DNA from: a bacterium
GTDB lineage: Bacteria > Zhuqueibacterota > Zhuqueibacteria > Oceanimicrobiales > Oceanimicrobiaceae
Direction: 5' to 3'
Length of the DNA: 50,617 nt
Assembly (NCBI GenBank): GCA_046757025.1
Contig: JBHHXN010000019.1
Span: 1 to 50,617, forward strand
Shown here: positions 17,441 to 33,327 of the stretch, one piece after another
Numbering within the stretch: position 1 is the first letter of the stretch
Layout: every line of letters begins with the position of its first letter
Translations under genes and position numbers: made by a program
Notes under the pieces: model-generated
Told to the model about the DNA's origin: nothing
Database searches by the model: none
Seen by the model: the letters and a program-made list of their open reading frames with translations, nothing else

Positions 17441-18418
17441 TTACGGGTTATGGATACCGGTGCCTTGCATCTGGTAAAGATCTAGGCATTGTTGGCAAAT
17501 CGGTTCAGTGGCGGCCCATTTCGGATGGGCTGATTTTATTTGGGAAAGAACCGATTTCGGAAGAAGATTCGCTGCCAACACGAGATGAAAGGAAGGGAAT
17601 CGACACAGCGGACAGATACTGTGGCGGTGATTTTTTGAATCAGCAGCAAATGGCGGAATCACGTTTAAAATCGTCAAGGCTAGCAAATCTTGATGTTTGG
17701 GTGAGGGATTCTCAAACAAGTGGTCGAACGTGTCATCCAGGTCCTGAATAAGACCGGAAAACGCCTTTTTAAAAATCTGGCGCTGTCTTTCGCGCACATC
17801 GGAAGAAAGGAGATTCGCATTGCAGAGCCGGCCATAAATCGTGCTATCCCATAAAATGCGATAGCGTTCCTGCAGCAGCCGATCATACAAGGCGCCGGTT
17901 TCCGATCGGGGTAGTGCGGGTTCATAACCAAAATCCGTGTCGAGCATATCCACCACGTGTAACAGCTCGTAGCGGAGAAAGGTGAGTAACGATTCGATGT
18001 GCATAAAATGCTCTGGCAGCACCTGGATGAGAATGGAACGATCTCCTCTCTGGACGGTCTCCCCGCGTTTGCCCGAAACATAAAGATCAGCAAAGGTCTC
18101 CTTTTTGGTAGGCGCCTTAACCACCAGGCATCTTTGCGTTTGGGCTTTCAAAACAGGCCAGTCAGCGAGGACTTGCTGCAGCGGCCGATGTAAACCGAAA
18201 ATTTCAAACCACTTTTGATGCAAAGTCTGAAAAGCCGCTTCGCGTGCGACAGGGTCGAACGAATAGATTTCATCTCTTTCCGTTCTAAATGCCGCTTCCT
18301 GAGGATTTCCAGCAACTGCCAGCAAAACCGTTTCTTCCATCAATTGCGGTTGGTATTCAACCACATAATCCGATGAAGATGGGTCAATCGGAGGCGGGTT
18401 TTTCAGTCTCTTTTTCAA
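17441..18418 (-). CDS. Hypothetical NXR-operon protein with C-terminal CxxC...CxxC
   Basis: 325-aa ORF 30 nt downstream of the chaperone gene; RYELLHVVDMLD; CPLC...CQQC; start codon uncertain. Confidence 0.75.
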   Translation of the reverse strand: MKKRLKNPPPIDPSSSDYVVEYQPQLMEETVLLAVAGNPQEAAFRTERDEIYSFDPVAREAAFQTLHQKWFEIFGLHRPLQQVLADWPVLKAQTQRCLVVKAPTKKETFADLYVSGKRGETVQRGDRSILIQVLPEHFMHIESLLTFLRYELLHVVDMLDTDFGYEPALPRSETGALYDRLLQERYRILWDSTIYGRLCNANLLSSDVRERQRQIFKKAFSGLIQDLDDTFDHLFENPSPKHQDLLALTILNVIPPFAADSKNHRHSICPLCRFPSFHLVLAANLLPKSVLSQIKSAHPKWAATEPICQQCLDLYQMQGTGIHNP

Positions 18419-18448
18419 GGTAAACAGCTTTCATCAATTCAACAAACA

Positions 18449-19246
18449 CTAATCGGCATCTTCATCTACATGGCACAAATCCTGAATGACTTCTTCTCCA
18501 GAACCACAGGTAAAACAGGCGTTCTCCATGGTTTCCGGTCGCAAGCGCAGATTTTCAGGACCGGCCGGCACGCCAAATTGCGCGCACTCCTGAAAGATAA
18601 ATTTGCGGGCAAGCTCTGCCAATAGCGCGTAAAAACTGCCCGGATTTTCTTTCATGAGCAAGTGCGTAAACGCTGGAACAAATCTCCCCAAATGATCTTG
18701 CAAAAACAATTTTTGTGCCTGACGGGTCTGCTGCAGCATGTCTTCATCGTGGACTTCTATTGCATAAGCTTCCTTTCTGGTTACAAAAGCGAGAAACTCA
18801 CACTCACAACTGATGTGGTCCACGCGCTCCTTTTCTTGGCCATTCAGCGTCAAACCGAATGCAGCAAAAAAACCCGAAATGTCGCTGAGCTGCTGGGGCT
18901 GCTGAAACAGCGTTTCGGTGCCGTATTCCGTTTCGTAAGGCGGGACTTTGGGACGAGCAGTGTGTCCGAAATAGAAACGATACGAGCATTCCAGGGAATC
19001 CAGGTTTTGGGCGTCGGTACATGAGCGTAACCGCAGCACCGCTTTTGACCAGCCAATCGGCCGGGAATCGGAAGTCATGTTTTCCAGCATGCCGACCATT
19101 TCGGCCAGGGCGCGGTTTTGTACTTCCGACAGCAAGCGCTCGAAGGTTTCTGCGGTGGGCGGTCGAAAACCCAACGCCAGCGCTTCATAAAATCCGCTTC
19201 GGCAAAGCGCCAAATCAATCGTATGTAGGTTTGTGGTTTCGGTCAT
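18449..19246 (-). CDS. TorD/DmsD-family molybdoenzyme chaperone
   Basis: PPYETEY, DISGFFAAFGL, ERVDHISCECEFL, FLQDHLGRFVP. Confidence 0.9.
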   Translation of the reverse strand: MTETTNLHTIDLALCRSGFYEALALGFRPPTAETFERLLSEVQNRALAEMVGMLENMTSDSRPIGWSKAVLRLRSCTDAQNLDSLECSYRFYFGHTARPKVPPYETEYGTETLFQQPQQLSDISGFFAAFGLTLNGQEKERVDHISCECEFLAFVTRKEAYAIEVHDEDMLQQTRQAQKLFLQDHLGRFVPAFTHLLMKENPGSFYALLAELARKFIFQECAQFGVPAGPENLRLRPETMENACFTCGSGEEVIQDLCHVDEDAD

Positions 19247-19278
19247 TTTTTCATTCCAAAAAAGTGAATTTGTTATTT

Positions 19279-19454
19279 AGTGTTTGACTTAAAAGTCCCC
19301 CAACGCCCTGTCATTGCGAGTCCCGCGGTGTGGGCGGGACGAAGCCATCTCCTGCCTGAGAAGAGAGAGATTCCAGCACAAAGCTTGTCCCTGCATGTCT
19401 TTAGCAGGGAGATCGCTGGAATGACTTTAAGAATCGAGTTTTCGGCCAAACACT
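19279..19454. mobile_element. MITE-like element inside the NXR operon
   Basis: TIR AGTGTTTGACTTAAAAGTC/GAGTTTTCGGCCAAACACT; ATTT on both flanks; GTCATTGCGAG...GGAATGAC cargo sharing the TCCCTGC..GCAGGGA hairpin with the 8832 family. Confidence 0.75.
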
Positions 19455-19479
19455 ATTTGTCTCCAGCGCTTCTGGCCGA

Positions 19480-20730
19480 CTAAATTGAATTAGCGTATTT
19501 TGCATCGCGTTCAAAAACAGGCTCTTCCACGCTGGTGCGGAAAAGCTCCTGATCATTTTTACCATACGCGATGATGGTGTCATTGTAAATCGTTACCGGC
19601 TTGCCGCGCAAATTGCCTTCGTAAACCTTCGGCCCTTCTTCAAATTTATATTTGAAAATGATCAGATTGGAACGCCGAAATAGCTGCAGCACCGCCAGTA
19701 GCTCTCGGTCCGGATTGACATAACGCTCGATGGCCTGATCCACGCCGGGGCCAAACATCTGCTTCAAATAATCGCGCGGCACCCATCGCGGCGGGATGTA
19801 GTAGCCGTTGGGCGAGGTACCCAGTTGCGGATACAGCGGTAGAGCCACCTTCGCCACGTGGACTAAGAAGTATAGTGGATTGTAACGGTCTTCAATCCAG
19901 CGGCCCTCTTTGTTCATTTTCACCAATCCTTGCAGCCGGATTTGCCCTATACACGAAGCCATGCAGCGGGTTTCCATGGGCTGGCGGTTCGCCTCCGGAT
20001 CGCTGCCCTCCACCCGCGGGTAGCAGGCAATGCATTTTTCTGAAATTCGTGTGTTGCCGCGGTACATGGATTTTTTGTACGGACAGGCCTCCACACACTT
20101 TCGGTAGCCCCGGCACTCCTTCTGATCGATCAATACGATGCCGTCTTCTGGACGTTTGTAAATGGCATTGCGCGGGCAGGCTGCCAGACAGGCCGGGTAG
20201 GTGCAATGATTGCATATACGTGCCAGATAAAAAAACCAGGTTTTGTGTACGGGCAGCTCTACCCCTTCTTTATCAAACTCGTACTTTTTGCCATTTTTCC
20301 CCTGCGGATTATCTTCGTAGATATTTGGCGAGTTCCACTCATGATCCGGAGGCAAATAGCCCAGCACACGCGAGCTTTCCGGCGTGAGTTTTTTCTCGGC
20401 CGCTTCAAAAATCGTCTGGCCGTTAAATTGCGTTTGGCCATTTTTCTGCGACCACTTCTGCCCTTCGGGATTCGCTTCATCCAGCAACTGCAAAATTTTT
20501 ATATCCCAAAATTGTGGATAGCCGCCGTAAGGTTTGGTCTCGACGTTGGCCCACCACATGTGCTCCTGCCCCTTGCTGAAAGTCCATGTGGACTTGCAAG
20601 CCATGGTACAGGTTTGGCAGGCAATGCAGCGATTGATGTTAAAAACAAACGCAAACTGCCTTTGCGGAAAAGCCGCTGCATGCGGATATTTCATATCACG
20701 GCCAAGCTGCCAGTTATAGACTTTAGGCAT
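19480..20730 (-). CDS. nxrB: Nitrite oxidoreductase/periplasmic nitrate reductase beta (Fe-S) subunit
   Basis: MPKVYNWQLGR start; CIACQTCTMAC, CNHCTYPAC, CRGYRKCVEAC, EKCIACYPR, RCMASCIG; ALPLYPQLGT.PNGYYIPPRW. Confidence 0.9.
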   Translation of the reverse strand: MPKVYNWQLGRDMKYPHAAAFPQRQFAFVFNINRCIACQTCTMACKSTWTFSKGQEHMWWANVETKPYGGYPQFWDIKILQLLDEANPEGQKWSQKNGQTQFNGQTIFEAAEKKLTPESSRVLGYLPPDHEWNSPNIYEDNPQGKNGKKYEFDKEGVELPVHKTWFFYLARICNHCTYPACLAACPRNAIYKRPEDGIVLIDQKECRGYRKCVEACPYKKSMYRGNTRISEKCIACYPRVEGSDPEANRQPMETRCMASCIGQIRLQGLVKMNKEGRWIEDRYNPLYFLVHVAKVALPLYPQLGTSPNGYYIPPRWVPRDYLKQMFGPGVDQAIERYVNPDRELLAVLQLFRRSNLIIFKYKFEEGPKVYEGNLRGKPVTIYNDTIIAYGKNDQELFRTSVEEPVFERDAKYANSI

Positions 20731-21025
20731 GGTTGTTCTCCTTTTCAACATGATTTTTGGATTTGGCTTGAGCCCTGCCCCAGATGGCCAGGCACTCATC
20801 CACAATTTTATCGACTTTTTCAACGCCGAGCTCCAGAAAAGCGCGATGGGAGCCGGCATAAAATGGATGACTGAATATCTTCATGATCTTTTGCTTTTTA
20901 AATCCCAATCGCACGAACTCTTCAGCGAAAACGTACGCCATGTCCACGGTTGTAGAAGCGTTGACTGGCAGTTCCACACCTACGAGCGTGTTGGGATCAT
21001 CGGGATCAGGTTCATGGTAAGGCAT
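20723..21025 (-). CDS. Small hypothetical protein between nxrA and nxrB
   Basis: RBS AAGGA, 100 aa, overlaps the nxrB start by 8 nt; DPDDPNTLVGVELP..MAYVFAEEF..FYAG. Confidence 0.75.
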   Translation of the reverse strand: MPYHEPDPDDPNTLVGVELPVNASTTVDMAYVFAEEFVRLGFKKQKIMKIFSHPFYAGSHRAFLELGVEKVDKIVDECLAIWGRAQAKSKNHVEKENNHA

Positions 21026-21052
21026 AATCGGTTCCTTTTAAAAATAACACCT

Positions 21053-24000
21053 TTAACTCTTAACAGTCGTTAAACCACCAGCCAGATATTTTTTCATGAA
21101 ATCGCTTTCGTTATCCGGCGTGAAACCCGTGGTAGCCGGCTGCCAGATTCCCACGCCATCCATGCCGCCGTTTTCCGCTTTCGTAACCCGTACCAGTGTT
21201 TCTTTGGGCACGGTGTTGATGGCGTGATTGTCCGCTTCGCCGCCAAAAATAAATTTCATATACACTTTGGCTTTGTGGAAAAGGCTATCGGTTTGGTGCA
21301 TGGGCATGTGCCAGTTGCGGGTAATGGATTGTTGTGAGCCGTAACGCAAATTGGCCTGGTAGCCGGTGTTTTCCGAAAGCGCTCGCCCATCCGGTCGAGT
21401 TTCATGCGCCCGCACGCTCTTTTCCGTGGCGATGAAGGGGGCGTGTTTCATCATCACAATATTGTAGGGATAAGCGTGGTTGTATTTCACCCGCAACATA
21501 CAGCGGGACACGCGGTAGAAAAATTCGTCTGGTTTGGCGCCGATATAGGGGCGATCGGCCGGGTTGGCGTCCACGTAAACATAGTCGCCGTCGTTGATAC
21601 CGAGGTCGCGCGCAGCTTTTGGATTGATATGCAATTGATGCTCACCCACGCAAGGGGCGCGTTTGTCGAGTCGGTAGGGATCGCCGAAGTTGGAATCGTA
21701 CAGCATGTGCCAATCGACGTTGGACCAGCCGCTGTGAACGCGATGCCGGGTTTTGGGTGTCAGGCAGTAAAATTGAAAACCCTTTTCCCAGAGAAAATTG
21801 TGGGTATTTTTGACCCGGCTCCAGTTCATTTTTATGTTGCGTACGGTGCGTTCATCCCAGTGCCGGGCGCTGGCGGCAATGCCGTAATCGTCGGGTCGGA
21901 TGTACGGGTTGGAGCTGACGATGACATTAGGCAAATAGGGCGTCGCTTCCGGTCCCTCACGGTGCACGATAAAGTTTTCACCGTATTCGATGGCCTCGGG
22001 AATGTCCGAGTAAGCATGCATGCGACCGGTGTCGGTGTGAAATGGCTGACTGTCCTTGACCTGCTCGTAAAACGGAATACGCGGATAGGTGCGAAACATC
22101 ATGAGCGCGCCCCCGGACGGACCGTATTTTCCCGCCATGATATCATCGAGATTGTAACCAGCCGTCGTGGTGCAAGTGTCGAGCAAACGTTGAATGTAAA
22201 CTTTGCGTTTGCCCTCGTATTCGAATTTAAAATAATCTGTGAATCGTTTGTCGCCGGTGACTTTTGCCAGACTTTTGGCGATGCCAGCGATGATGGAGAG
22301 ATCGTCTTTGCTGTCAAAAACCGACGGGATGCCGCCTTTCCAAATTTGCAGAAACGGGTTGGAACAACTGGCGGTGATTTCCAGGTCCTCGAATTCCAGC
22401 CAGGAGTTGGCCGGCAGCGCCAGATCGGAATATTCAATGGAAGCGGTCATTTGAATGTCGAATGACACGATCATCTCGATATTCGGATTCACGTTCTTGA
22501 TCATTTCATAAACCCACTTGGCATTGTTGATCAGATTGACGTTATTGAACAACAAAGCCTTGGTTGGCGTGGGCATGTGGGTATCGCCGGTAAAATTCTT
22601 TCGGCCGTATTTGGGCGTATTGACAATCAGCGCTTTGTCACCGTGATTCCAGTAAGCTGGCTCCTCCCCTTTTGCGTGGCCGTGGGCCTGGATCTCTTTA
22701 CCGTGGGCGCTCTCATCGAGATTGGGCGCGAACGGGTCTTCGGCAACCCACCCCTTGAATCCGGGTCCCGTCCAGGGAGAACCCTGAAACAATGCCGCTT
22801 TATAATTGCCGGCCCAGGTCTGACAGCCAGCTCCCGGTTTGCCGATGTTTCCAGTCAAAATCACCGGTAGATAAGCCGCCCGGTTCATTTCCGTGGCATG
22901 GAACCAGTGATTGATGCCTTCCCCCTGATGAATGGCCACCGGCTTGAGGGTGGCGATATCTTCGGCAAGCTGCTCCACCAGCTTTTTAGGAGCATGGGTG
23001 ATCTCACAGACCGTGTCGATATCATAGTCTTTCAAGTGCACCTGGTACAGCGACCACAAGGTCGCGACCTCTACTTGCCGGCCATCGACCAATCGCACTT
23101 TGAAACTGCCAGCGAGCGCCGGTTCGATGCCTTTTTGTATCATGGTCTCGCCCACGTCGTCACGCGTGAGCGCTTTAGGCTGATTTGACTTTTTATCCCA
23201 GACCACATAATCCCCCAACTTTTCGTGCTGCTCTTCCGTGAAACCCTGGATTTTGACGGACGGTCCATCGGAGGAAAGGCTGCTTTTATAATCTGGAAAC
23301 AGCTCATGGGCGCGCAGACGCTTGAGGGTATCCTTTCTAACCAGGAACGGAAAATCGGTAAACTTTTTCACAAACGCCTCATCGTACCACTTTTTGTCGA
23401 TGAGAATTTTGGTGACCCCCAGCCAGAGCGCGGCATCGGTGGCCGGCCGGATGGGAATCCAGTAATCGGCTTTGGTAGAAGGCGGCCCGTATTCCGGCGC
23501 GATGACCACAATTTTTGCCCCGCGTTCCATGCATTCGATAAACCAGTGCGAGTCTGGCAATTTGTTTTCCACGAGATTTTTGCCATCCATGATGATCAGC
23601 TTGGAAAAACGCAGATCGTTGAAGTCGCAATCCGAGGTTTGCAGGCCGTGTACCCAGGGATGGCCGGGCGCCTGATCGCCGTGCCAGGTGTAGTTGGAAA
23701 AATTGCGTCCGGCCAACGCTTCCTTTTTGCTGACGCCGCGGTTGAGTGTATCGAGAATGGCCAAAGAGTTATTGAGACGGTACATGCCATATTTGCCGAT
23801 CACCCCCAGCAGCCCCATGCCGCCGCGCATTTTCACACAGCGTGTGCCCGCGCCGCCGGTCGCCGCCACCATTTCAGGTTGGTATCCCTGTGCCAGCAGA
23901 CGGTTTTTGCCGGCCTCACCGCTGTATCGCTGAGTGATGGCCACCAGAGCTTTGGCAATATTATCGAAGGCATCCGACCAGCTAATCTGCACAAATTCAT

Positions 24001-24523
24001 CATCGCCGCGGCTGTCGAATTTAAATTTCGATTTGAGCTCCGGCGTCAGCTCGGGAAAGCCGGCATCTGCCCAAGCCTTCCAACCCTTGCGCACGATGGG
24101 ATGCTTCAAGCGATAAGGGCCGTAGATAACGCGATGAAACGTGTACCCTTTGGCACATTGCCGCGGATTCCAGTTGCGGGTGGCGTGGTTGCCGTCCAGA
24201 TCGGAATAGGTCTGGTAATCGTAAGTCGAACCCAGCCGCGTGACGATGCCATTGCGCACATAAGCGCGCACCCGGCAGGCATGTGTGTCATTGGGCGAGC
24301 ACACCCAGTCGAAATAAGAATCGTATTTATACTGATCGCGGTATATCTTTTCCCAGTCGCGATTCACCGAGCCGGCTAACGGATTCTGGTCTGCCGCCAC
24401 CGCGGCCAGTAACTTTAACGGCAGGTTCAGGCCGGCAATGGTGGCGCCGGTACCTGCGCCCAACCAGCTCAAAAACTGTCGGCGATTTATTTGAGTACGA
24501 TCCTCAAATCTTTTTTTACCCAT
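21053..24523 (-). CDS. nxrA: Periplasmic NXR-type molybdopterin alpha subunit (type II DMSO reductase family)
   Basis: Tat motif NRRQFL; FS0 motif CSPNDTHAC...NWNPRQCAKG; Mo-ligand Asp in TWHGDQAPG; TPKTRHRVHS; YGSQQSITR; NTVPKETLV. Confidence 0.9.
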   Translation of the reverse strand: MGKKRFEDRTQINRRQFLSWLGAGTGATIAGLNLPLKLLAAVAADQNPLAGSVNRDWEKIYRDQYKYDSYFDWVCSPNDTHACRVRAYVRNGIVTRLGSTYDYQTYSDLDGNHATRNWNPRQCAKGYTFHRVIYGPYRLKHPIVRKGWKAWADAGFPELTPELKSKFKFDSRGDDEFVQISWSDAFDNIAKALVAITQRYSGEAGKNRLLAQGYQPEMVAATGGAGTRCVKMRGGMGLLGVIGKYGMYRLNNSLAILDTLNRGVSKKEALAGRNFSNYTWHGDQAPGHPWVHGLQTSDCDFNDLRFSKLIIMDGKNLVENKLPDSHWFIECMERGAKIVVIAPEYGPPSTKADYWIPIRPATDAALWLGVTKILIDKKWYDEAFVKKFTDFPFLVRKDTLKRLRAHELFPDYKSSLSSDGPSVKIQGFTEEQHEKLGDYVVWDKKSNQPKALTRDDVGETMIQKGIEPALAGSFKVRLVDGRQVEVATLWSLYQVHLKDYDIDTVCEITHAPKKLVEQLAEDIATLKPVAIHQGEGINHWFHATEMNRAAYLPVILTGNIGKPGAGCQTWAGNYKAALFQGSPWTGPGFKGWVAEDPFAPNLDESAHGKEIQAHGHAKGEEPAYWNHGDKALIVNTPKYGRKNFTGDTHMPTPTKALLFNNVNLINNAKWVYEMIKNVNPNIEMIVSFDIQMTASIEYSDLALPANSWLEFEDLEITASCSNPFLQIWKGGIPSVFDSKDDLSIIAGIAKSLAKVTGDKRFTDYFKFEYEGKRKVYIQRLLDTCTTTAGYNLDDIMAGKYGPSGGALMMFRTYPRIPFYEQVKDSQPFHTDTGRMHAYSDIPEAIEYGENFIVHREGPEATPYLPNVIVSSNPYIRPDDYGIAASARHWDERTVRNIKMNWSRVKNTHNFLWEKGFQFYCLTPKTRHRVHSGWSNVDWHMLYDSNFGDPYRLDKRAPCVGEHQLHINPKAARDLGINDGDYVYVDANPADRPYIGAKPDEFFYRVSRCMLRVKYNHAYPYNIVMMKHAPFIATEKSVRAHETRPDGRALSENTGYQANLRYGSQQSITRNWHMPMHQTDSLFHKAKVYMKFIFGGEADNHAINTVPKETLVRVTKAENGGMDGVGIWQPATTGFTPDNESDFMKKYLAGGLTTVKS

Positions 24524-24595
24524 GGGACTCTCCCTTTTCAATGGTTAAAATTTCCTGTAAAATAATTTCATCGACCTGTCAAATCTATGTTTTTT

Positions 24596-26218
24596 TCAAT
24601 CGAGTATGACCAAATCTTGCCAGATGGTCACGGATTTCTTGCCGTCGCGGTCGCCGGCGCGGCCGTTCCAGACCGCAAACGCGACCGGGACCGTCTGGCC
24701 CGGACTGAGATTTACGCTGTTCCTGCCGCTGCCATTCAGTGAACGGCGCAGCACCACCCGGTACGTTCCAAGATCATAAAATCCTTTCGCTGCCACATTT
24801 TGATCCGACATGGGATGCGCTTTCAGGGTGCCAAATCCTTGCGAATACAAATCTTCAGATGGATTTTTCCGGGTGGGATCCGACACAATGTTGTCCGCTC
24901 CCCAGCCCGTAATAAAGGCCGGGTCGGATTCCAGGGTGAGCGCCCGGCGCGTGGGCTGCTCCAGGGCTGAGCGGATTAAATTGGGATAGGAATCGATGCC
25001 GATGTTCGGATAGACTTTGTCGATATCCTGAAACGCCGGTTCGAGATCCGCCTGCCGCTCCGATTTCCACATCCACAAATTGACATAACTGCCGCGCTCT
25101 CCCATGCCAAAAAACGGCGGATCATCGGTCATGGCAAACTCCACCGCCGCCGCATCGCGAAAATCTTGCGGGCGAATCACGGTTTGATCATGACTCTCAT
25201 CTTCCCACATCAGGCGAATGGCCAGCGTGTTGCCGTCGTGCAGCGCTTGTACATTCAAAATTTCGGGGCGATCGTCGCGCCACCAGAGCGGCATCATGTG
25301 CAAGTTCACGGCGTCGGCCTCGCGCCAGACGCCGGCGTCGGGATGGTCGGGGATTTCAGCCACCCGTCGGGCTACAATGCGGAACTTCTTCATTTCCACC
25401 CGCTCACGCTGCTGAGCGCTGGACATGGAAAGCACAAAATGCGTTAAATGCCAGGCATCTTCGCCGTAGGACCAGTCGCTCATGGGCATGGGTGAACCCG
25501 GTAACCCGGCCACAATACGACGATAAATCTGCTCTGGTTCAGGTCCCCCTTTGAAAATCCCCTGAGTCAAGTCACGCGGGCGGGTGGGATACCCCTTTTC
25601 ATCGATTTGCTTTTGGACGCCATCGCCCCGGCCCGTCGCTCCATGACAGGCGGCACAGGCGTCGGCATAGCGCTGACGAGCGCGCTCCTCGGCCTGGGCA
25701 TCGTAGGCAGGTTCCGGCGGAATCTTGATGATGCCCTTTTGCTCTTCGCTTTCCTCACTCACCGCGGGGATGGGTTTCCTGGCAAAGGATTTAATGTAAT
25801 GCACCAGAGCCCAGCGCGTTTTCTCGCTTAGGTGCGACCAAGAGGGCATGGCTGAACCGGGAATCCCCCGAGAGATCACATAAAAAATATCTTCATCGGT
25901 AGGAATTCTCTCCCAGGTTGAGACAATTCGGTAACGCGCAGCGGTAAAATCTCGTGGCTTGGGATAAAGCAGGTAGGCCGCTTCTCCCTGCCCGTCGCCT
26001 TGCAATCCGTGGCAGGGAGCGCATCTTTGATCGTAAATAATTTTGCCTGCTTTTAATAAATCTGTTGAGGAAGGTAGAACTTCAGAAGCCTGCAGATTCG
26101 ACGCAATGGCGCCCGACCTCAGCTCCTGAGCAGCCTGTTTTCCTTTCCTGCAACTCATCTGCAATAACAAACCCACAACTAAAAAGCAAACAATACAAAC
26201 CGTTGATTCCTTTTTCAT
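24596..26218 (-). CDS. Lipoprotein diheme cytochrome c fused to an EbdC/NxrC-like heme-b domain
   Basis: Lipobox-like QMSC; CAPCH and CAACH with PRDFT/PRDLT and GSAMP/GSPMP; C-terminal FRDAAAVEF, FFGMG, VNLWMWK, VAFAVWNG..GDRDGKK. Confidence 0.85.
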   Translation of the reverse strand: MKKESTVCIVCFLVVGLLLQMSCRKGKQAAQELRSGAIASNLQASEVLPSSTDLLKAGKIIYDQRCAPCHGLQGDGQGEAAYLLYPKPRDFTAARYRIVSTWERIPTDEDIFYVISRGIPGSAMPSWSHLSEKTRWALVHYIKSFARKPIPAVSEESEEQKGIIKIPPEPAYDAQAEERARQRYADACAACHGATGRGDGVQKQIDEKGYPTRPRDLTQGIFKGGPEPEQIYRRIVAGLPGSPMPMSDWSYGEDAWHLTHFVLSMSSAQQRERVEMKKFRIVARRVAEIPDHPDAGVWREADAVNLHMMPLWWRDDRPEILNVQALHDGNTLAIRLMWEDESHDQTVIRPQDFRDAAAVEFAMTDDPPFFGMGERGSYVNLWMWKSERQADLEPAFQDIDKVYPNIGIDSYPNLIRSALEQPTRRALTLESDPAFITGWGADNIVSDPTRKNPSEDLYSQGFGTLKAHPMSDQNVAAKGFYDLGTYRVVLRRSLNGSGRNSVNLSPGQTVPVAFAVWNGRAGDRDGKKSVTIWQDLVILD

Positions 26219-26396
26219 TTTGAACCCCTTCAATAGGTTACTATTCAAAAAAATTAGTCTGGCTTGTAGGAGTAATGTATATTTATATATTTGTTTACGA
26301 TAACAGAAAGGAATATGGTGCTGCTACGATTCCGTTTTAAGTTCGGTCACTTATTACGGTTTTAACCATCTGATGAAAAATATAACAGAAAAGAGA

Positions 26397-27758: not shown

Positions 27759-28925
27759 TTACAATTTCACAGCACGCATGAGTGCTTCATTGGAAGGAGC
27801 CTGTTCCAGAAGTCGCAGCATACTTTGCATGGCCGGTCGAGGTTCACTATCCGCCAGCCGGCGACGTAGCGCGGCCAGCCACTGGGTTTCACCATCCGAG
27901 TACAGCAGCTCCTCTTTACGGGTACCGCTGGCTATTATATTGATGGCGGGAAAAATTCGAGCGTCTGCCAGCGAACGCTCCAGCACGATCTCACAATTCC
28001 CCGTCCCCTTGAACTCTTCGAAAATGAAATCATCCATGCGCGAGCCGGTCTCGACAAGCGCCGTGGCGATGACGGTCACGGAACCGCCGTTTTCGACGTT
28101 GCGCGCCAGGCCAAAAAACTTTCGTGGAATTTCCAGCGCCCGGGCGTCCAGCCCGCCGGTCATGGTGCGTCGGGAACCCTTGCCGGATTTGTTAAACGCT
28201 CTTCCCATGCGGGTGAGGCTGTCCACCAGCACGACGATGTCCCGTCCACATTCCAGCTCACAACGGATGTGCGCCAGGGTAAGCTCCGCTAAATTGATAT
28301 GCGATTCAAGACTCTGATCATTGGAGCTGGCCAGTACTTCTGCAGGCACGGTGCGGCGAAAATTCGTCACCTCTTCCGGACGCTCGTCGATGAGCAGCAC
28401 GATGATACGCGTTTCCGGCTCGCTTTCTTGAATTGCGCGCGCTATTTGCTCCAGAATCCGGGTTTTACCGGCTTTCGGCGGTGACACGATCAGGCCGCGG
28501 GTACCCTTACCAATGGGCGCAATCAAGTCGATAATGCGCATGGTCGGATTGCCGCCCACACCTAATCGGAATCGCTCCGTGGGATCGATGGCCAGCAGCT
28601 TGTCAAATCGAGTACGAGCTTGGAACTGCTCCGGCGTCAAACCGCAGACGGATTCGATGGCAATTAGTTGATTCCCTTTTTCAGTTTGCACCCTCTCGCC
28701 GCGGACCGCGGCCCCGTCTTCCAGGCCATATTCTCGGATCATTTTGGATGACACCCAGGTATCCTGGGAGGTTGCCTGAAAGGACCTGTGCGCGTCTCGC
28801 AAAAAGCCACTGCCCTGTTGAATGCGTTGTAAAACACCGCTGACCGTCTGATTCGTTGATTGTGAATTTCGGGTTTCGGGTTTTGGGTTTTGGGTATTAT
28901 TTTTGCCTGAACGCGATGAATCCAT
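27759..28925 (-). CDS. rho: Transcription termination factor Rho (short form)
   Basis: GFLR RNA-binding motif; PIGKGTR, PPKAGKT Walker A, LIDERPEEV, DSLTR, EEFKGTGN, SGTRKEELL. Confidence 0.93.
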   Translation of the reverse strand: MDSSRSGKNNTQNPKPETRNSQSTNQTVSGVLQRIQQGSGFLRDAHRSFQATSQDTWVSSKMIREYGLEDGAAVRGERVQTEKGNQLIAIESVCGLTPEQFQARTRFDKLLAIDPTERFRLGVGGNPTMRIIDLIAPIGKGTRGLIVSPPKAGKTRILEQIARAIQESEPETRIIVLLIDERPEEVTNFRRTVPAEVLASSNDQSLESHINLAELTLAHIRCELECGRDIVVLVDSLTRMGRAFNKSGKGSRRTMTGGLDARALEIPRKFFGLARNVENGGSVTVIATALVETGSRMDDFIFEEFKGTGNCEIVLERSLADARIFPAINIIASGTRKEELLYSDGETQWLAALRRRLADSEPRPAMQSMLRLLEQAPSNEALMRAVKL

Positions 28926-29337
28926 CGTCTTGTTGCTTCCTTTTTTATTGATAAAGCTACGAATTGAGAATTTCAACTACCAGGGTACAGGGTGCGCCCG
29001 CTGCCTATCAGCTATTCATACTTTTGCATCTCGATAAGGGAAAGGCTCATGCAATTTCATCGTGAACAGACAGCCATGCCCATCTCTGAAACGAATCATT
29101 TGTCAGGTAAGTTTCGCGATCTTACTGGATTTGAACACGTGCGGATTCAATTGCAACAGAAATGTTTATAGCATAGCAGCGTTTCAATCCATTGAATCCT
29201 ATCCATCATTTTGAGTTCATCACAACAAATAGTGTTTTCAATAATGTGAATTGAGGAAAAGGTGTACTGGCCAACTCCCAAAGAAGATGGCCAGCCTGGG
29301 ATCTGGAGACACTTACAGAATTACCGCCGATATCGCT

Positions 29338-29646
29338 CTATCGACGATGCCAGCCACCGCCACCACCGCTTTTACCGCGATTTCCACCACCGCCACGTTG
29401 ATCTCTGCGAGGCCGGGCTTCACTAACCGCGATGTTCTTGCCTTTCAATTCCACACCATTTAATTCACTAATCGCGGTTACGGCTTCGGACTTGTCGGGC
29501 ATTTCAACGAATCCAAATCCACGCGACTCTCCGCTGTAGCGGTCTTTGATCACATTCACCGAGCTCACCTGGCCAAATTTCTCGAAAGCCTCTTGCAAAT
29601 CTTCGTTTGTGACTTCAAAAGATAAATTTCCAACATATAGATTCAT
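29338..29646 (-). CDS. RRM RNA-binding protein with Gly-rich tail
   Basis: LYVGNL (RNP2), SRGFGFVEM (RNP1), EARPR, GGGG tail. Confidence 0.95.
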   Translation of the reverse strand: MNLYVGNLSFEVTNEDLQEAFEKFGQVSSVNVIKDRYSGESRGFGFVEMPDKSEAVTAISELNGVELKGKNIAVSEARPRRDQRGGGGNRGKSGGGGGWHRR

Positions 29647-29861
29647 GACGTTCTCCTAATAACTTACAAGGTATTTGAAATTCGCCACCATACAATAAAT
29701 CAAAAACAAGATTGAACTTAAAGAAAAATGAGATAAGCGGTGAATGACAATAATAACCAGGTCCTTCACATTTCATTTATAATATATCAAGCCTTCTGTT
29801 TTGGTAATTTTGTGGCGATGAATTATTCGGGATAAAAAAATTGTGGAGCCGTTTCGAATAC

Positions 29862-30290
29862 TCAAACAATCTCCATCAATTGGATATCGAAAATGAGTTC
29901 TTTGCCGGCCAAGGGATGGTTCGCATCTAAAGTCACCGAAGAATCACTCACGCCCATGACGGTCATGATGATCTTTTTACCGTCATTTTGAACACTCTGT
30001 AATTTTTGCCCGATTTCGGCGTTTAAGCCATCGGGCAGCTCTTTTTTATCTATCTCCCAAACCAATTCTGCATTGTGCTCACCGTAGGCGCTTTCTGGCG
30101 GGATGGTTATCGATTTTGATTCTCCGGGCGCCATGCCGATAATTCCTTGCTCAAAGCCTGGAATCAATTGGCCATCGCCGATTGTAAATTGCAGTGGTTC
30201 GCGTTCTATGGAGGAATCGAAAATGGAACCGTCCTCCAATTTACCAGTGTAGTGCACCACCACCGTGTCACCTTGTGTTGCTTTTGACAT
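29862..30290 (-). CDS. slyD: FKBP-type peptidyl-prolyl isomerase (SlyD/FkpB-like, no His-rich tail)
   Basis: VHYTGKLEDGSIFDSS, LIPGFE, AYGE, DANHPLAGKEL. Confidence 0.92.
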   Translation of the reverse strand: MSKATQGDTVVVHYTGKLEDGSIFDSSIEREPLQFTIGDGQLIPGFEQGIIGMAPGESKSITIPPESAYGEHNAELVWEIDKKELPDGLNAEIGQKLQSVQNDGKKIIMTVMGVSDSSVTLDANHPLAGKELIFDIQLMEIV

Positions 30291-30467
30291 GTAATTCTCC
30301 TTGAATGAGGTTAAGATCGTACTAGAAATATGTCAGAGTCACCTGCAGATAAGAGAAGAAAGAGAAAAGAAATGAAAGAATGAATAGGAGAAACCGGGTC
30401 TTCTCGCGAACTTCGATTATAAGAAGCGATATCACATATCACTAGTGATGAATTGATCATTGCTTTT

Positions 30468-30496
30468 AATGTAACGTATAAAAATCATGAAAACAA
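30468..30496 (-). promoter_or_regulatory. Putative promoter TTGTTT-17-TACATT upstream of slyD
   Basis: Hexamer spacing on the minus strand; implies a ~170-nt pyrimidine-rich leader. Confidence 0.4.
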
Positions 30497-30759
30497 CATT
30501 TTTTTACATTAAATTAACTGAAGATATTTAATTTTCCTTAAAATATGGCGTATCTGGGATAAATGTAGCCAGCTAAGAAATGAAAGGCACGGCACCACTT
30601 TGTTGGGAAAAATATCGCCATAATGAGTAGCAATTATATAAAGAGTAAAAAAAGGTTGAGCATGAACAAAACGGACGGCCGTCTGGTTAATATGGAATCC
30701 AGCCGCGGGCAGGAACGGCAGAAAGGGCTGCTTTTGTCCAGACTCGTTATGTTTGGGGG

Positions 30760-31509
30760 CTATTTGGAATTGGGATCCATGAATTTAGTATTCGGGTGTT
30801 CCTGCTTCCATGTGCGCCAGCGAGTTTTAGTCGATTGAAATTCGGTAAGTTTGCGGTCTGCATGCACCCCGCTAATACAGGTTAATCCGTCTTCCTCCGG
30901 CAAATGATACCACAGACTTTCGGTTTCATAATCATACAAAACAAATGTTAAGTCATAGGTCCAACCGCTTGCACTTAACGTAAGCACCTTGCTTGTACTA
31001 TCGGATGTGCTGAAATTTACTATCTCGCGGCTGTACACGGCAGCCAAACCCACCAGCGGTCAGTAGGCCACCGCTACGTGCACGTCGCTAAATTTTTCAT
31101 TGGCGACCTCGTTTAAGCCCAGTTTTTGAATGGAATATGCGCGCGCATCTTCTTCGAAGCTGGTACCAAGAACCAGAAATGTGCTGCTGGCATCCGGATA
31201 CCCTGGTTGACCGGGCCGAAGCATTTTAGGTTCGAGAATCGGGGGGATGGCGTTTGGGCCCAGTCCAAACTCAAACTTTTCGGGCACGAAACCATATTTG
31301 TGCACCGCGTGACTTATCTCCCACCTTTTGCCGGTGCGATCGACAATAAAAATTTTTGTGGTGTCGGTCTCCACCGGTTCACCGGGTGTCACTTCGTCCT
31401 CCGGATTAGGATCTTGAAGATATTTGAGGGTAATTTCATCCTGCAAGCAGGCACTCTGTGAGAGCAGGAATCCAAATAGGAGGTATCTGACCATAAGGGA
31501 AGACTTCAC
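30760..31509 (-). CDS. DUF3179-domain selenoprotein (lipoprotein), UGA read as Sec at 31060-31062
   Basis: The two ORFs 31060..31509 and 30760..31053 are in one frame: VAVAY-TGA-PLVGLAAVYSR, where the family has 'YCPL'; DARAYS..L...EVAN and ASGW......LYDYETESLW motifs; hairpin GGCTG..CAGCC 14 nt after UGA. Confidence 0.85.
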
Positions 31510-31616
31510 ACTTGCTCCACGATTTTATGACACGTTTTCTACTGCTTTAGATAACAGTTCGTGAATCAATTTTATTTCCTGTTCGCGTAAAATCAATGAA
31601 ACAAAAGTAATTCGTT

Positions 31617-31758
31617 GAGACTGTCGAAAAAGTCCCCTTCATATCATTTCGAGGAACGAAGTGACGAAGTAATCTCCCAATTCAGTGCCTAAATCAAGGG
31701 GACTGCTATCGTCATTGGAATTCCTCGCAGTGACATCTTAGGCTTTTTCGTCAGTCAC
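31617..31758. mobile_element. MITE-like element (GACTGTCGAAAAAG ends)
   Basis: TIR GACTGTCGAAAAAG/CTTTTTCGTCAGTC (13/14); degenerate TCATTTCGAGGAA..TTCCTCGCAGTGAC cargo. Confidence 0.6.
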
Positions 31759-31815
31759 GTTGGCAGGTAAACCCCATGCGGACTGGTTACGTTTCTACAA
31801 AGCCGGCAAAGAAAT

Positions 31816-31856
31816 AAAAAAAGACCTCTCCTTGTAGGCAGGGAGAGGTCTTTTTT
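31816..31856. terminator. Intrinsic (bidirectional-type) terminator after susD
   Basis: A7-GACCTCTCC..GGAGAGGTC-T6. Confidence 0.85.
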
Positions 31857-31905
31857 AGTCAAGATTAAACAATCCGTGACGGATTTTCACATCCGCAAAC
31901 TTCGT

Positions 31906-33327
31906 TTAATAGCCGGCATTTTGCGTAATATTCGGATTTACGTTGGTTTCCTCAAAAGGAATGGGTAAAACGAATAATTCGCTTGGGTAAGCCATGATGC
32001 AAACCGGGGAAGTACAATCCGTTCTGACCACATCCTGCTTGTGCCGGGTGATATCAAAAAGCCGATGTCCTTCAAAGCACAATTCAATTCTTCTCTCTTT
32101 CAGAATTTCAGCCAGCAGGTCAGCACCGGTGGCAGTGACCGGAGCGGCGGAGGGCAGCGCTCTTTGTCGAATCAAATTCAAGTCTGCCTGTGCGCCGGTA
32201 TCGTTTCCTTGTTGTACTCTGGCTTCGGCTCGATTCAGGTAAACCTCGGATAGTCGAATCACCGGCAGGTTATCCGTGCCGATAGCGGCGCCGGTGCTGG
32301 GGTATTTGTTTACACGGAAGCTGGCGTACTGCCCCTGTAGGTTGGGATCGGTAGTGAACATGGTTTTCCGGATATCGTTATCGTCCATCATGGCCAGCAA
32401 AGAGTTCGCAGGCAGATAATCGCCGTAACCGGTCTCTTTGTACATGCCGCCCAAGTGATTCGAGCCGGGGTTGTCCGTGGCGGTGTACACCATTTCAAAG
32501 ATGGATTCCGCAGAAAATCCGTTTAGAAACATCGTTGGATATTCCGAAGCGGTTGCCAGGCTATATTTGCCACTTTGAATCACGGCGGTGGCCATCGCTT
32601 CGGCGTTGGCATAATCCTCTTTGTAGAGGTAAACCCGCGACAGCAAAGCCTGAGCCGCCTCCTTTGAGAAGCGACCGGAATTGGGCGGGTCGATGGTCAT
32701 CAAAGAGATAGCTTGCGTGAAGTCGGAAATAACTTGATCATAGACTTCTTTCACCGTATTCCTGGCCGGTTTGTTCGTGACATCGAATTCAAGCACCAGT
32801 GGCACCCCGGGGTGCGAAGCATCGGGGGTGAACGTATAGTGCTGGGCAAAAATCCTTACAAGGTCGAAATAAGCCAGAGCTCGCAGGGCATGGGCTTCGC
32901 CAACAAGCTGATTAAACTGGGCCCGAACAGATTCGAGCGGCTCGAAAGACGAATTGATCATTTGATTCGCCATATTGACCGCTTCGTATATTTCCGCCCA
33001 GAATTCTCTGTCGACGCGGTGCGTGGTGTTGATGGAACCATTGTATTCGGCCCATTCTTTCGCCCGGTTGGCGCTGGCATTCTGTTTTACATCTTCACCC
33101 ATAATGTCAGGCACTAAAAGCATGTAGCGCCCATACCAGTCAGCTAATTGTAACTGGTCATAGCCGCCAATTATAGCAGCTTGAAAATCCGATATCGATT
33201 GCAAAAATTCGGTATCGCTTACGCTTTGTTGTGGGGTTAGATTTAAAAAGTCATCATTGCAGGCGAAGCTAAACAAAATTATCACCAGCATGATAAGACT
33301 TATTTTGAATGTCTTGAATGGTTTCAT
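31906..33327 (-). CDS. susD: RagB/SusD-family nutrient-binding lipoprotein
   Basis: Lipobox FACNDDFL; GEAHALRALAYFDLVR, AAQALLSRVYL, IRLSEVYLNRAEA, ERRIELCFEGHR, QNAGY. Confidence 0.93.
   Translation of the reverse strand: MKPFKTFKISLIMLVIILFSFACNDDFLNLTPQQSVSDTEFLQSISDFQAAIIGGYDQLQLADWYGRYMLLVPDIMGEDVKQNASANRAKEWAEYNGSINTTHRVDREFWAEIYEAVNMANQMINSSFEPLESVRAQFNQLVGEAHALRALAYFDLVRIFAQHYTFTPDASHPGVPLVLEFDVTNKPARNTVKEVYDQVISDFTQAISLMTIDPPNSGRFSKEAAQALLSRVYLYKEDYANAEAMATAVIQSGKYSLATASEYPTMFLNGFSAESIFEMVYTATDNPGSNHLGGMYKETGYGDYLPANSLLAMMDDNDIRKTMFTTDPNLQGQYASFRVNKYPSTGAAIGTDNLPVIRLSEVYLNRAEARVQQGNDTGAQADLNLIRQRALPSAAPVTATGADLLAEILKERRIELCFEGHRLFDITRHKQDVVRTDCTSPVCIMAYPSELFVLPIPFEETNVNPNITQNAGY

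Follow-up and report, generated by a model that had tools for sequence, protein, structure and literature searches.

A half-size DUF3179 lipoprotein gene with an in-frame UGA, very likely decoded as selenocysteine, and a tentative outer-membrane channel partner

RESULTS

Locus and reading frame

The window (the whole stretch of DNA analyzed, 50,617 nucleotides [nt]) carries on its minus strand, at positions 30760 to 31509, a DUF3179 gene, recognized by its frame and its Pfam match, that would encode a one-repeat lipoprotein of 249 amino acids (aa) with selenocysteine (Sec) at position 150. The 249-codon frame runs from GTG at 31509 to TAG at 30762-30760, and its sole internal TGA (31062-31060), which column conservation in homologs marks as a very probable Sec codon (U150), lies in the translated context V-A-V-A-Y-U-P-L-V-G-L-A-A-V-Y-S-R. 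The sequence-only reading had joined two open reading frames (ORFs) into this one gene, and the joined frame holds: the entries 31060-31509 and 30760-31053 share a frame and are parted by the TGA, and the Pfam model of DUF3179 (PF11376) matches across it (residues 86 to 246, positions 30772 to 31254, model positions 2 to 149 of 292) with 97.6 bits and an E value of 1.2e-27, at a gathering cutoff of 27. Scored separately, the halves reach 22.6 bits (model positions 2 to 64) and 51.5 bits (model positions 66 to 150); as they match adjoining model positions, U corresponds to model position 65. The TGA is unchanged in contigs of three runs (X1, X2, and X3) of one study, two of which are possibly the source of the window; no RNA run was listed as carrying the sequence.

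The GTG start is backed by a ribosome-binding-site-like GGAG (31515 to 31518, minus strand) 5 nt upstream, a motif that also precedes the start in locus L138, and by a K-S-S start shared with L059 and L138. Farther upstream, between a susD-like gene and the DUF3179 gene, a terminator-like hairpin with A and T runs (31816 to 31856, minus strand) was read by eye and suggests that the two genes are transcribed separately; a systematic sequence scan did not report this hairpin, and a promoter scan stayed at chance level. The same upstream region contains an imperfect palindromic repeat (31620-31760), which we take to be of the REP type; its 34- to 50-nt core has seven more matches in the genome and is also present in other contigs of the same samples. 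Elsewhere in the window, a minus-strand cluster at 17444-26248 contains genes for a 1,162-residue molybdoenzyme-like subunit with a Tat signal and for an iron-sulfur-like subunit, along with a chaperone-like gene and a fusion involving cytochrome c, and is presumably an operon of the nitrate reductase or nitrite oxidoreductase type; a Rho termination factor homologue with a short N terminus at 27759-28976 may be a second copy of Rho.

The Sec column in homologs

The 20 further close matches retrieved from 41 genomes (48 to 67% identity) each contain an internal TGA. A profile search of the fetched loci yielded 224 distinct aligned sites, second-repeat hits included, and at the column in question these sites include 139 short genes with TGA, 4 cut genes with TGA, 22 longer genes with TGA, 2 short genes with Cys, and 27 long genes with Cys. 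The pairing of Cys and UGA that had been proposed for this column is therefore what the homologs display (29 Cys-codon sites among the loci), and TGG is absent at the column from every fetched locus. Five first-repeat sites carry Arg, Ser, or Glu there. Among 81 database proteins, the column is occupied by Cys in 24 (13 long proteins and 11 short ones, among them P0033) and by Trp in 4, and 5 more have Thr, Arg, or Ser there; the sequences that do not reach the column end in ...VAVAY. The expectation that gene callers would split the gene is thus realized, with many database proteins, including a 149-residue product, ending just before the UGA. Short homologs with Arg, Ser, Thr, or Glu at the column (L168, L169, L180, L117, and L164; P0016 and P0027 to P0030) lack the hairpin codons described below and are possibly noncatalytic members.

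Tryptophan at this position had been named in advance as a finding that would tell against Sec. It does occur in four database proteins (P0003, P0004, P0008, and P0024, whose own DNA lies outside the loci compared), which likely represent TGA translated under another code on short contigs. Two proteins with W, P0087 and P0094 (250 aa, from contigs of ~1.3 kb), fall into the same 90% cluster as 149-aa truncations such as P0093, and P0093 matches, by the length of its contig, locus L138, whose codon at the column is TGA. Trp at the column is most likely a gene-caller artifact.

The sequence-only reading had also remarked that Val replaces the usual second Cys (UPLV). This is so here, but it is not a trait of the single gene, since the whole half-size subfamily shares it: the +3 residue in 142 short sites is Val (113), Ile (12), Ala (6), Glu (4), Gln (4), Lys (2), or Met (1) and never Cys, Thr, or Ser. 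In a quick tree of 98 rows, in which the 35 short Sec rows are a random sample, the short forms group together (support, 88), and the placement of Cys members within this group suggests reversions from Sec to Cys. Tandem pairs or triplets of short Sec DUF3179 genes are frequent (L085, L090, L099, L149, and other loci), and in L107 a Sec copy adjoins a Cys copy.

A SECIS hairpin within the coding sequence

A stem-loop had been noted to start 14 nt after the TGA, and its arms are in place (GGCTG at 31045-31041 and CAGCC at 31033-31029, around a 7-nt loop, CCGTGTA, at 31040-31034). A sixth pair, U-G at 31046/31028, lengthens the stem, such that the upper stem-loop of the putative SECIS element, as delimited by comparison of homologs, spans 31028 to 31046 (minus strand) with six pairs and an invariant G-U at +22/+23 (31038-31037). 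Folded as a single sequence, the region is within chance expectation (minimum free energy [MFE] of -11.3 kcal/mol; z of 0.54; 133 of 200 shuffles fold equally well), and a like geometry follows 2,941 of 221,540 genomic TGA triplets (1.3%); the significance of the hairpin therefore derives from the comparison of homologs and not from single-sequence folding. The 45 to 50 bases of this region are the part of the gene that recurs in other contigs of the same samples.

All five core pairs are present in 131 of 142 short TGA sites, and the G-U at +22/23 is present in all 142. The complete stem recurs in 13 of 20 long Sec genes and in none of the 29 Cys sites, including two short Cys genes with a nearly identical peptide. 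Codon usage was tabulated for the 110 of 145 sites that passed a motif filter, and the main counts were redone on 142 sites, with 3 sites belonging to other subtypes excluded. Within the 110 filtered sites, codons +6 to +10 are frozen (GCT in 77/80, GCC in 91/94, GTG in 107/110, TAC in 105/106, and Ser as AGY only), and codons +2, +3, +11, and +15 vary freely. The Tyr codon at +9 is TAC in 136 of 137 cases, versus 553 of 1,213 Tyr codons elsewhere in the same genes. On the 5′ side, the Tyr codon immediately before the UGA (31065-31063 in the window) is likewise TAC in 121 of 127 cases, versus the same 553 of 1,213 for other Tyr codons; this preference is an unexplained constraint 5′ of the UGA.

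Pairing is maintained through changes on both sides of the stem. Pair 16/30 is G-C in 99, A-U in 29, and G-U in 10 of the 142 sites and is unpaired in 4. In an alignment of 106 distinct rows, pairing holds in 98.4% of cells and 30 changes are two-sided, a level reached by 0 of 500 shuffles, and windows slid along the alignment as controls have 18 to 56% paired cells; the two-sided changes also alter amino acids (Ala/Thr with the choice of Ser codon, and Gly with Thr), and kinship inflates the counts. Comparative evidence (the synonymous freeze, the compensatory pairs, and the absence from Cys genes) identifies the downstream hairpin as a SECIS element, insofar as sequence comparison can do so. 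The bacterial SECIS model, in the portion of PMC13188914 available, specifies a loop of 3 to 9 nt, a stem of 4 to 16 bp, a G in the first two loop positions, a distance of 16 to 37 nt from the UGA, and an MFE of at most -7.5. With its 6-bp stem, a loop ~20 nt from the UGA, and the MFE given above, the hairpin lies within these limits; its G takes the second loop position only when C-A is counted as the closing pair of a five-base loop, being otherwise third of seven, and this closing position is U-A in 11 of 110 relatives.

Selenocysteine machinery

The corollary that the genome should decode Sec is borne out: selA (E value of 2.9e-151), selB (E value of 6.1e-108), selD, and tRNA-Sec(UCA) are all present in the genome (G000, 94.8% complete), with tRNA-Sec scoring above the Rfam cutoff and selD occurring twice. 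Next to selB, one selD copy is itself interrupted by an in-frame TGA at a position aligned with Cys, followed by a hairpin with a loop G at +21; the second, a Cys-type selD, lies inside a 755-residue open frame (G000:C344:188-2452, L009) that is probably a fusion protein. A thioredoxin-like frame on the plus strand of G000:C37, near 17630, reads W-A-S-W-U-A-C, has a Cys-aligned paralogue and SECIS-like geometry, and is a further candidate selenoprotein. Four of the six DUF3179 genes of G000 contain an in-frame TGA.

Of the 41 genomes, 38 yielded selA and 31 yielded tRNA-Sec. The short TGA form occurs in 14 other genomes, all 14 of which have selA or tRNA-Sec (these genomes are kin and not independent). 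In G011 (96% complete), neither selA nor tRNA-Sec was found, and all 7 of its DUF3179 matches are free of the stop; the exception is G007 (76% complete), with a TGA-bearing long form and neither selA nor tRNA-Sec found. From the literature, KSB1 genomes carry selABD, according to the available part of PMC9012183.

In seven genomes of the same family, tRNA-Sec lies ~0.5 to 2.5 kb from a long TGA-bearing DUF3179 gene (G000:C28:26973-30112 [L015 and L025], G001:C122, G004:C78, G006:C478, G008:C370, G013:C309, and G015:C523), and these long genes are of the U-P-L-A type where read. This proximity could reflect either common descent or a tie to selenium handling.

Protein anatomy and predicted fold

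The N terminus is a putative signal peptide ending at Cys21 (Q-S-A-C; 31447 to 31509, minus strand), the predicted lipoprotein anchor; this Cys follows a hydrophobic helix and is invariant in 21 of 21 alignment rows. The lipobox of relatives reads L-T-A-C or L-S-A-C, and the atypical Gln at -3 occurs solely here; of 132 short Sec genes, 106 match a regular expression for a lipobox-like Cys. In a search for the surface export signal of the Bacteroidetes type, few acidic residues were found after the Cys (0 or 1 in 77 of 106). Export and lipid anchoring at Cys21 are, judging from these sequence features, quite probable.

Long DUF3179 members consist of two repeats (hhalign, 99.6%, E value of 8e-25). 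The protein encoded here has one repeat plus an N-terminal extension and so covers part of the 292-position two-repeat architecture; profile comparison of the extension with the second repeat gave a probability of 6.9%. Across 131 short sequences, E134, R161, G182, Y185, F189, D193, W200, G214, and W234 show little or no variation; His133 is present in 91 (it is Asn here), and Cys211 is present in 104. The only thiol or selenol residues of the protein are Cys21, Sec150, and Cys211.

The structure model (mean pLDDT of 88.7) has a predicted Rieske-like beta fold over residues 120 to 231 (30817 to 31152, minus strand), free of C-x-H and C-x-x-H motifs. The first 38 of the 50 structural matches listed are Rieske-type domains, the best with a Z score of 6.5, which is below the fold-search caution mark of 8, and an rmsd of 2.7 over 92 residues; no thioredoxin fold is among the 50. 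The likeness to Rieske domains (PF00355; e.g., the toluene dioxygenase ferredoxin 3DQY and the NirD-like small subunit 3C0D) lies in predicted beta topology, whereas the cluster-binding motifs are missing, the Z score is low, and profile homology is not significant (at most 13%, against a set of 32 Rieske segments that was chosen by motif and includes 2 off-frame segments). A sequence search of the PDB returned no relatives at an E value of ≤1, NCBIfam had no model matching either this protein or the barrel described below, and an ESM Atlas search with P0007 retrieved DUF3179 clusters only. On balance, the model favors a Rieske-like scaffold without its cluster. From the aligned ranges, we infer that the invariant Arg161 and Asp193 would lie near the two cluster-ligand loops of Rieske domains, with Sec150 placed away from them. 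Strands 135-140 and 143-150 form a predicted hairpin, from which it follows, on secondary structure only, that Glu134 and residue 133 likely face Sec150.

Two further ideas about Sec150 were set aside. Its equation with the first Cys ligand of Rieske domains has a profile probability of 1.6%, within the range of the reversed control (0.6 to 1.8%), and was rejected. That Sec relaxes the need for His133 is not supported, as the long Sec forms retain His in 19 of 19 cases and short Cys proteins lose it too.

A predicted outer-membrane barrel beside homologs

The most common genuine neighbor of the short Sec genes is an unannotated secreted protein of ~300 residues (29 of 121 loci). Searches with a hidden Markov model (HMM) of this neighbor, predicted to be a barrel (see below), found its gene no more than 2.5 kb away from short Sec sites in 39 of 145 cases; where long flanks were available, the share is 20 of 70. 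This leaves 106 of the 145 (and 50 of those 70) with no barrel in the fetched DNA. The corresponding counts are 5 of 27 for long Cys sites and 0 of 20 for long Sec sites. Each of the four strong barrel genes in G000 is next to a DUF3179 gene (one on C335, one on C16, and two on C3); the HMM found none in the window at 29001-33000 and none on the contig of the present copy. In many short-form loci, the barrel gene and the DUF3179 gene converge, such that cotranscription is not general. On C16 (9251-9688, L028), a very divergent short DUF3179 gene reads U-Q-V-I and has its own hairpin with the G-U at +22/23; a barrel gene lies directly upstream on the same strand.

The modeled barrel has 12 strands, and its best match among COG4313 channels is 4RL8 (Z score of 23.5, rmsd of 2.7 over 242 residues), followed by FapF (Z score of 23.0); PF13557 is hit by 2 of 32 barrel members. 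Modeled together, the two-repeat Cys paralogue of C3 and the barrel encoded upstream of it gave a complex score of 0.81, versus 0.02 for the best control; 116 of 157 solved pairs and 2 of 215 mismatched pairs attain this mark (a rough calibration, as alignments made for this analysis were used). Contacts agree by at least 96% between runs of this complex, and the pLDDT of the partner is at least 92; recall of a like complex is unlikely, as no DUF3179 structure is on record by sequence. The predicted contacts involve the barrel's long loops, those that follow strands 1, 3, 5, 7, and 9, which by the usual topology of such barrels form the outward face. On the paralogue, part of the interface (residues 7-21, 62, 104-106, and 120) corresponds to residues 75-89, 132, 181-183, and 197 of the short form and covers its near-invariant G82, G84, S181, G182, W183, and E197. 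Most of the lowest-error pairs are linker contacts (169-195) with no counterpart in the short form, and the catalytic Cys is absent from the contacts listed for the complex. DUF3179 is also found in haloarchaea, organisms that have no outer membrane.

DISCUSSION

The claim that Sec-containing DUF3179 proteins exist agrees with the literature: the family appears in tables of selenoprotein families with the motif UxxC/T (available portions of PMC9312934 and PMC13188914), and RefSeq uses the label “DUF3179 domain-containing (seleno)protein.” Selenoproteins in PMC1976440 go by OS_HP names rather than DUF3179 in the part of that source available, and neighboring table rows suggest it as the origin of the DUF3179 entry. 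As in the catalogued proteins, the Pfam match here is above its cutoff, Sec occupies the same Cys column, and a bacterial SECIS element lies just 3′ of the UGA; unlike them, the protein has one repeat instead of two, a distinct N-terminal extension, a relaxed His133, and UxxV/I/A in place of UxxC/T, although the catalogued set, judging by those portions, may already hold short members. The gene very likely encodes a real selenoprotein, a half-size UxxV member of a known family for which the recoding itself is already known. Its open frame, in-frame TGA, and conserved hairpin, together with the genomic sel genes, make it almost certain, as far as sequence can speak to decoding, that UGA is read as Sec.

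On balance, we favor a single selenoprotein gene whose predicted product is an exported lipoprotein of 249 residues that carries a selenol and likely acts at a small outer-membrane channel, as its lid or partner. SelB would bind the G-U loop of the hairpin and bring Sec-tRNA to the UGA, and the protein would then be exported and lipid anchored at Cys21. Its one-repeat domain, on a cluster-less Rieske-like scaffold, would place Sec150 beside the invariant Glu134 as a single reactive center, with no second Cys three residues on. DUF3179 would dock on the long outward loops of the 12-stranded, COG4313-like barrel, where a small molecule on its way in would be bound by, or react with, Sec or Cys; the present copy would rely on a barrel gene at another locus, such as that on C335. 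The lid-on-barrel arrangement has somewhat less than an even chance of holding for the DUF3179 family, and it is a more doubtful proposition for this barrel-less copy. The broader proposal, that DUF3179 proteins are cluster-less Rieske-fold lipoprotein lids on COG4313-type channels, with the short Sec clade working at the cell surface, is similarly speculative.

The partner barrel of homologs resembles COG4313/PF13557 channels (Pput2725, 4RL8; FapF, 5O65) in its 12 strands. Further COG4313 channels are SphA and TcpY, and such channels are linked to the uptake of hydrophobic molecules (PMC4493636, available portion); that portion's description of them has no lipoprotein lid, and the COG4313-like partner gene lies outside this window. 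By analogy only, a predicted lipoprotein over the outward loops of a barrel transporter recalls the surface lipoprotein lids of SusCD-type systems, but the folds are unrelated, the 12-stranded barrel is small and not TonB dependent, and the lid bears Sec or Cys. Our literature searches on DUF3179/PF11376 returned table mentions only, with no function in the portions available, and those on the lid idea or on a link to arsenic returned nothing relevant.

The principal rival, which we consider unlikely though it fares best among the alternatives, keeps the selenoprotein and makes it a stand-alone redox or metal-scavenging lipoprotein of the envelope, acting through one Sec or a Sec150-Cys211 pair, with the tie to the barrel limited to other subtypes or historical. 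Neither this copy nor most short genes have a barrel neighbor, tandem arrays of short genes are frequent, and the catalogued UxxC/T is a motif of the thiol-redox type, yet none of the 142 sites has Cys, Ser, or Thr at +3, and no thioredoxin fold appears among the 50 structural matches listed. Cys211, the would-be partner, is present in 104 of 131 sequences but missing from 27, and barrels occur beside both short and long forms, with the paralogue complex outscoring its controls.

An improbable variant of the lid arrangement has the Sec lipoprotein and the barrel handling arsenic or soft metals, the selenol trapping an organoarsenical or metal(loid) at the mouth of the channel for nearby genes of an arsenosugar pathway. 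Selenols bind As(III) and Hg(II) tightly, and genes for ArsS radical SAM proteins (8 of 121) and TIGR04282 glycosyltransferases (5 of 121) occur at short-Sec loci; in G000, a TIGR04282-like gene lies 1.2 kb from the barrel-DUF3179 cluster on C3. Such loci total only 12 of 121, however, several from kindred Latescibacterota genomes; no such gene lies beside this copy, arsS of G000 is on a different contig, and COG4313 channels are tied to hydrophobic organics (PMC4493636, available portion).

Were the TGA a true stop, which is highly improbable, the gene would be a pseudogene or two small genes: the 149-residue product stands in gene calls and databases, a GTG eight bases past the TGA could open a 97-residue ORF, and the hairpin is unremarkable taken singly, but TGA occupies the same column in 139 distinct short sites from several phyla with Cys in true homologs, synonymous freezing and covariation set in just 3′ of it, and a break there would cut one compact predicted domain. 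Reading UGA as Trp, genome-wide or by suppression, is largely refuted and has a negligible chance, as W in P0003, P0004, P0008, and P0024 is countered by the lack of TGG at the column in any fetched locus, by the clustering of P0087/P0094 with 149-aa truncations, one of which matches the TGA-bearing locus L138, by a sole tRNA-Trp (CCA) among 46 tRNAs, and by the use of TGA to terminate 53 of 142 of these genes and ordinary genes of G000.

For the family, decoding as Sec amounts mainly to an annotation correction: gene callers truncate the subfamily at ~150 residues or write Trp, and the result is an undercounted selenoprotein that is common in genomes labeled KSB1, Calditrichota, and Latescibacterota. 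The alignment also offers a clean natural case of bacterial SECIS covariation within coding sequence. The predicted lid-on-channel arrangement gives DUF3179 a testable partner, location, and set of interface residues; if it is true, a single selenol placed at the mouth of the channel would capture or chemically screen solutes such as soft metals, organometalloids, or thiol-reactive organics, in what would be a selenium-armed analogue of SusCD.
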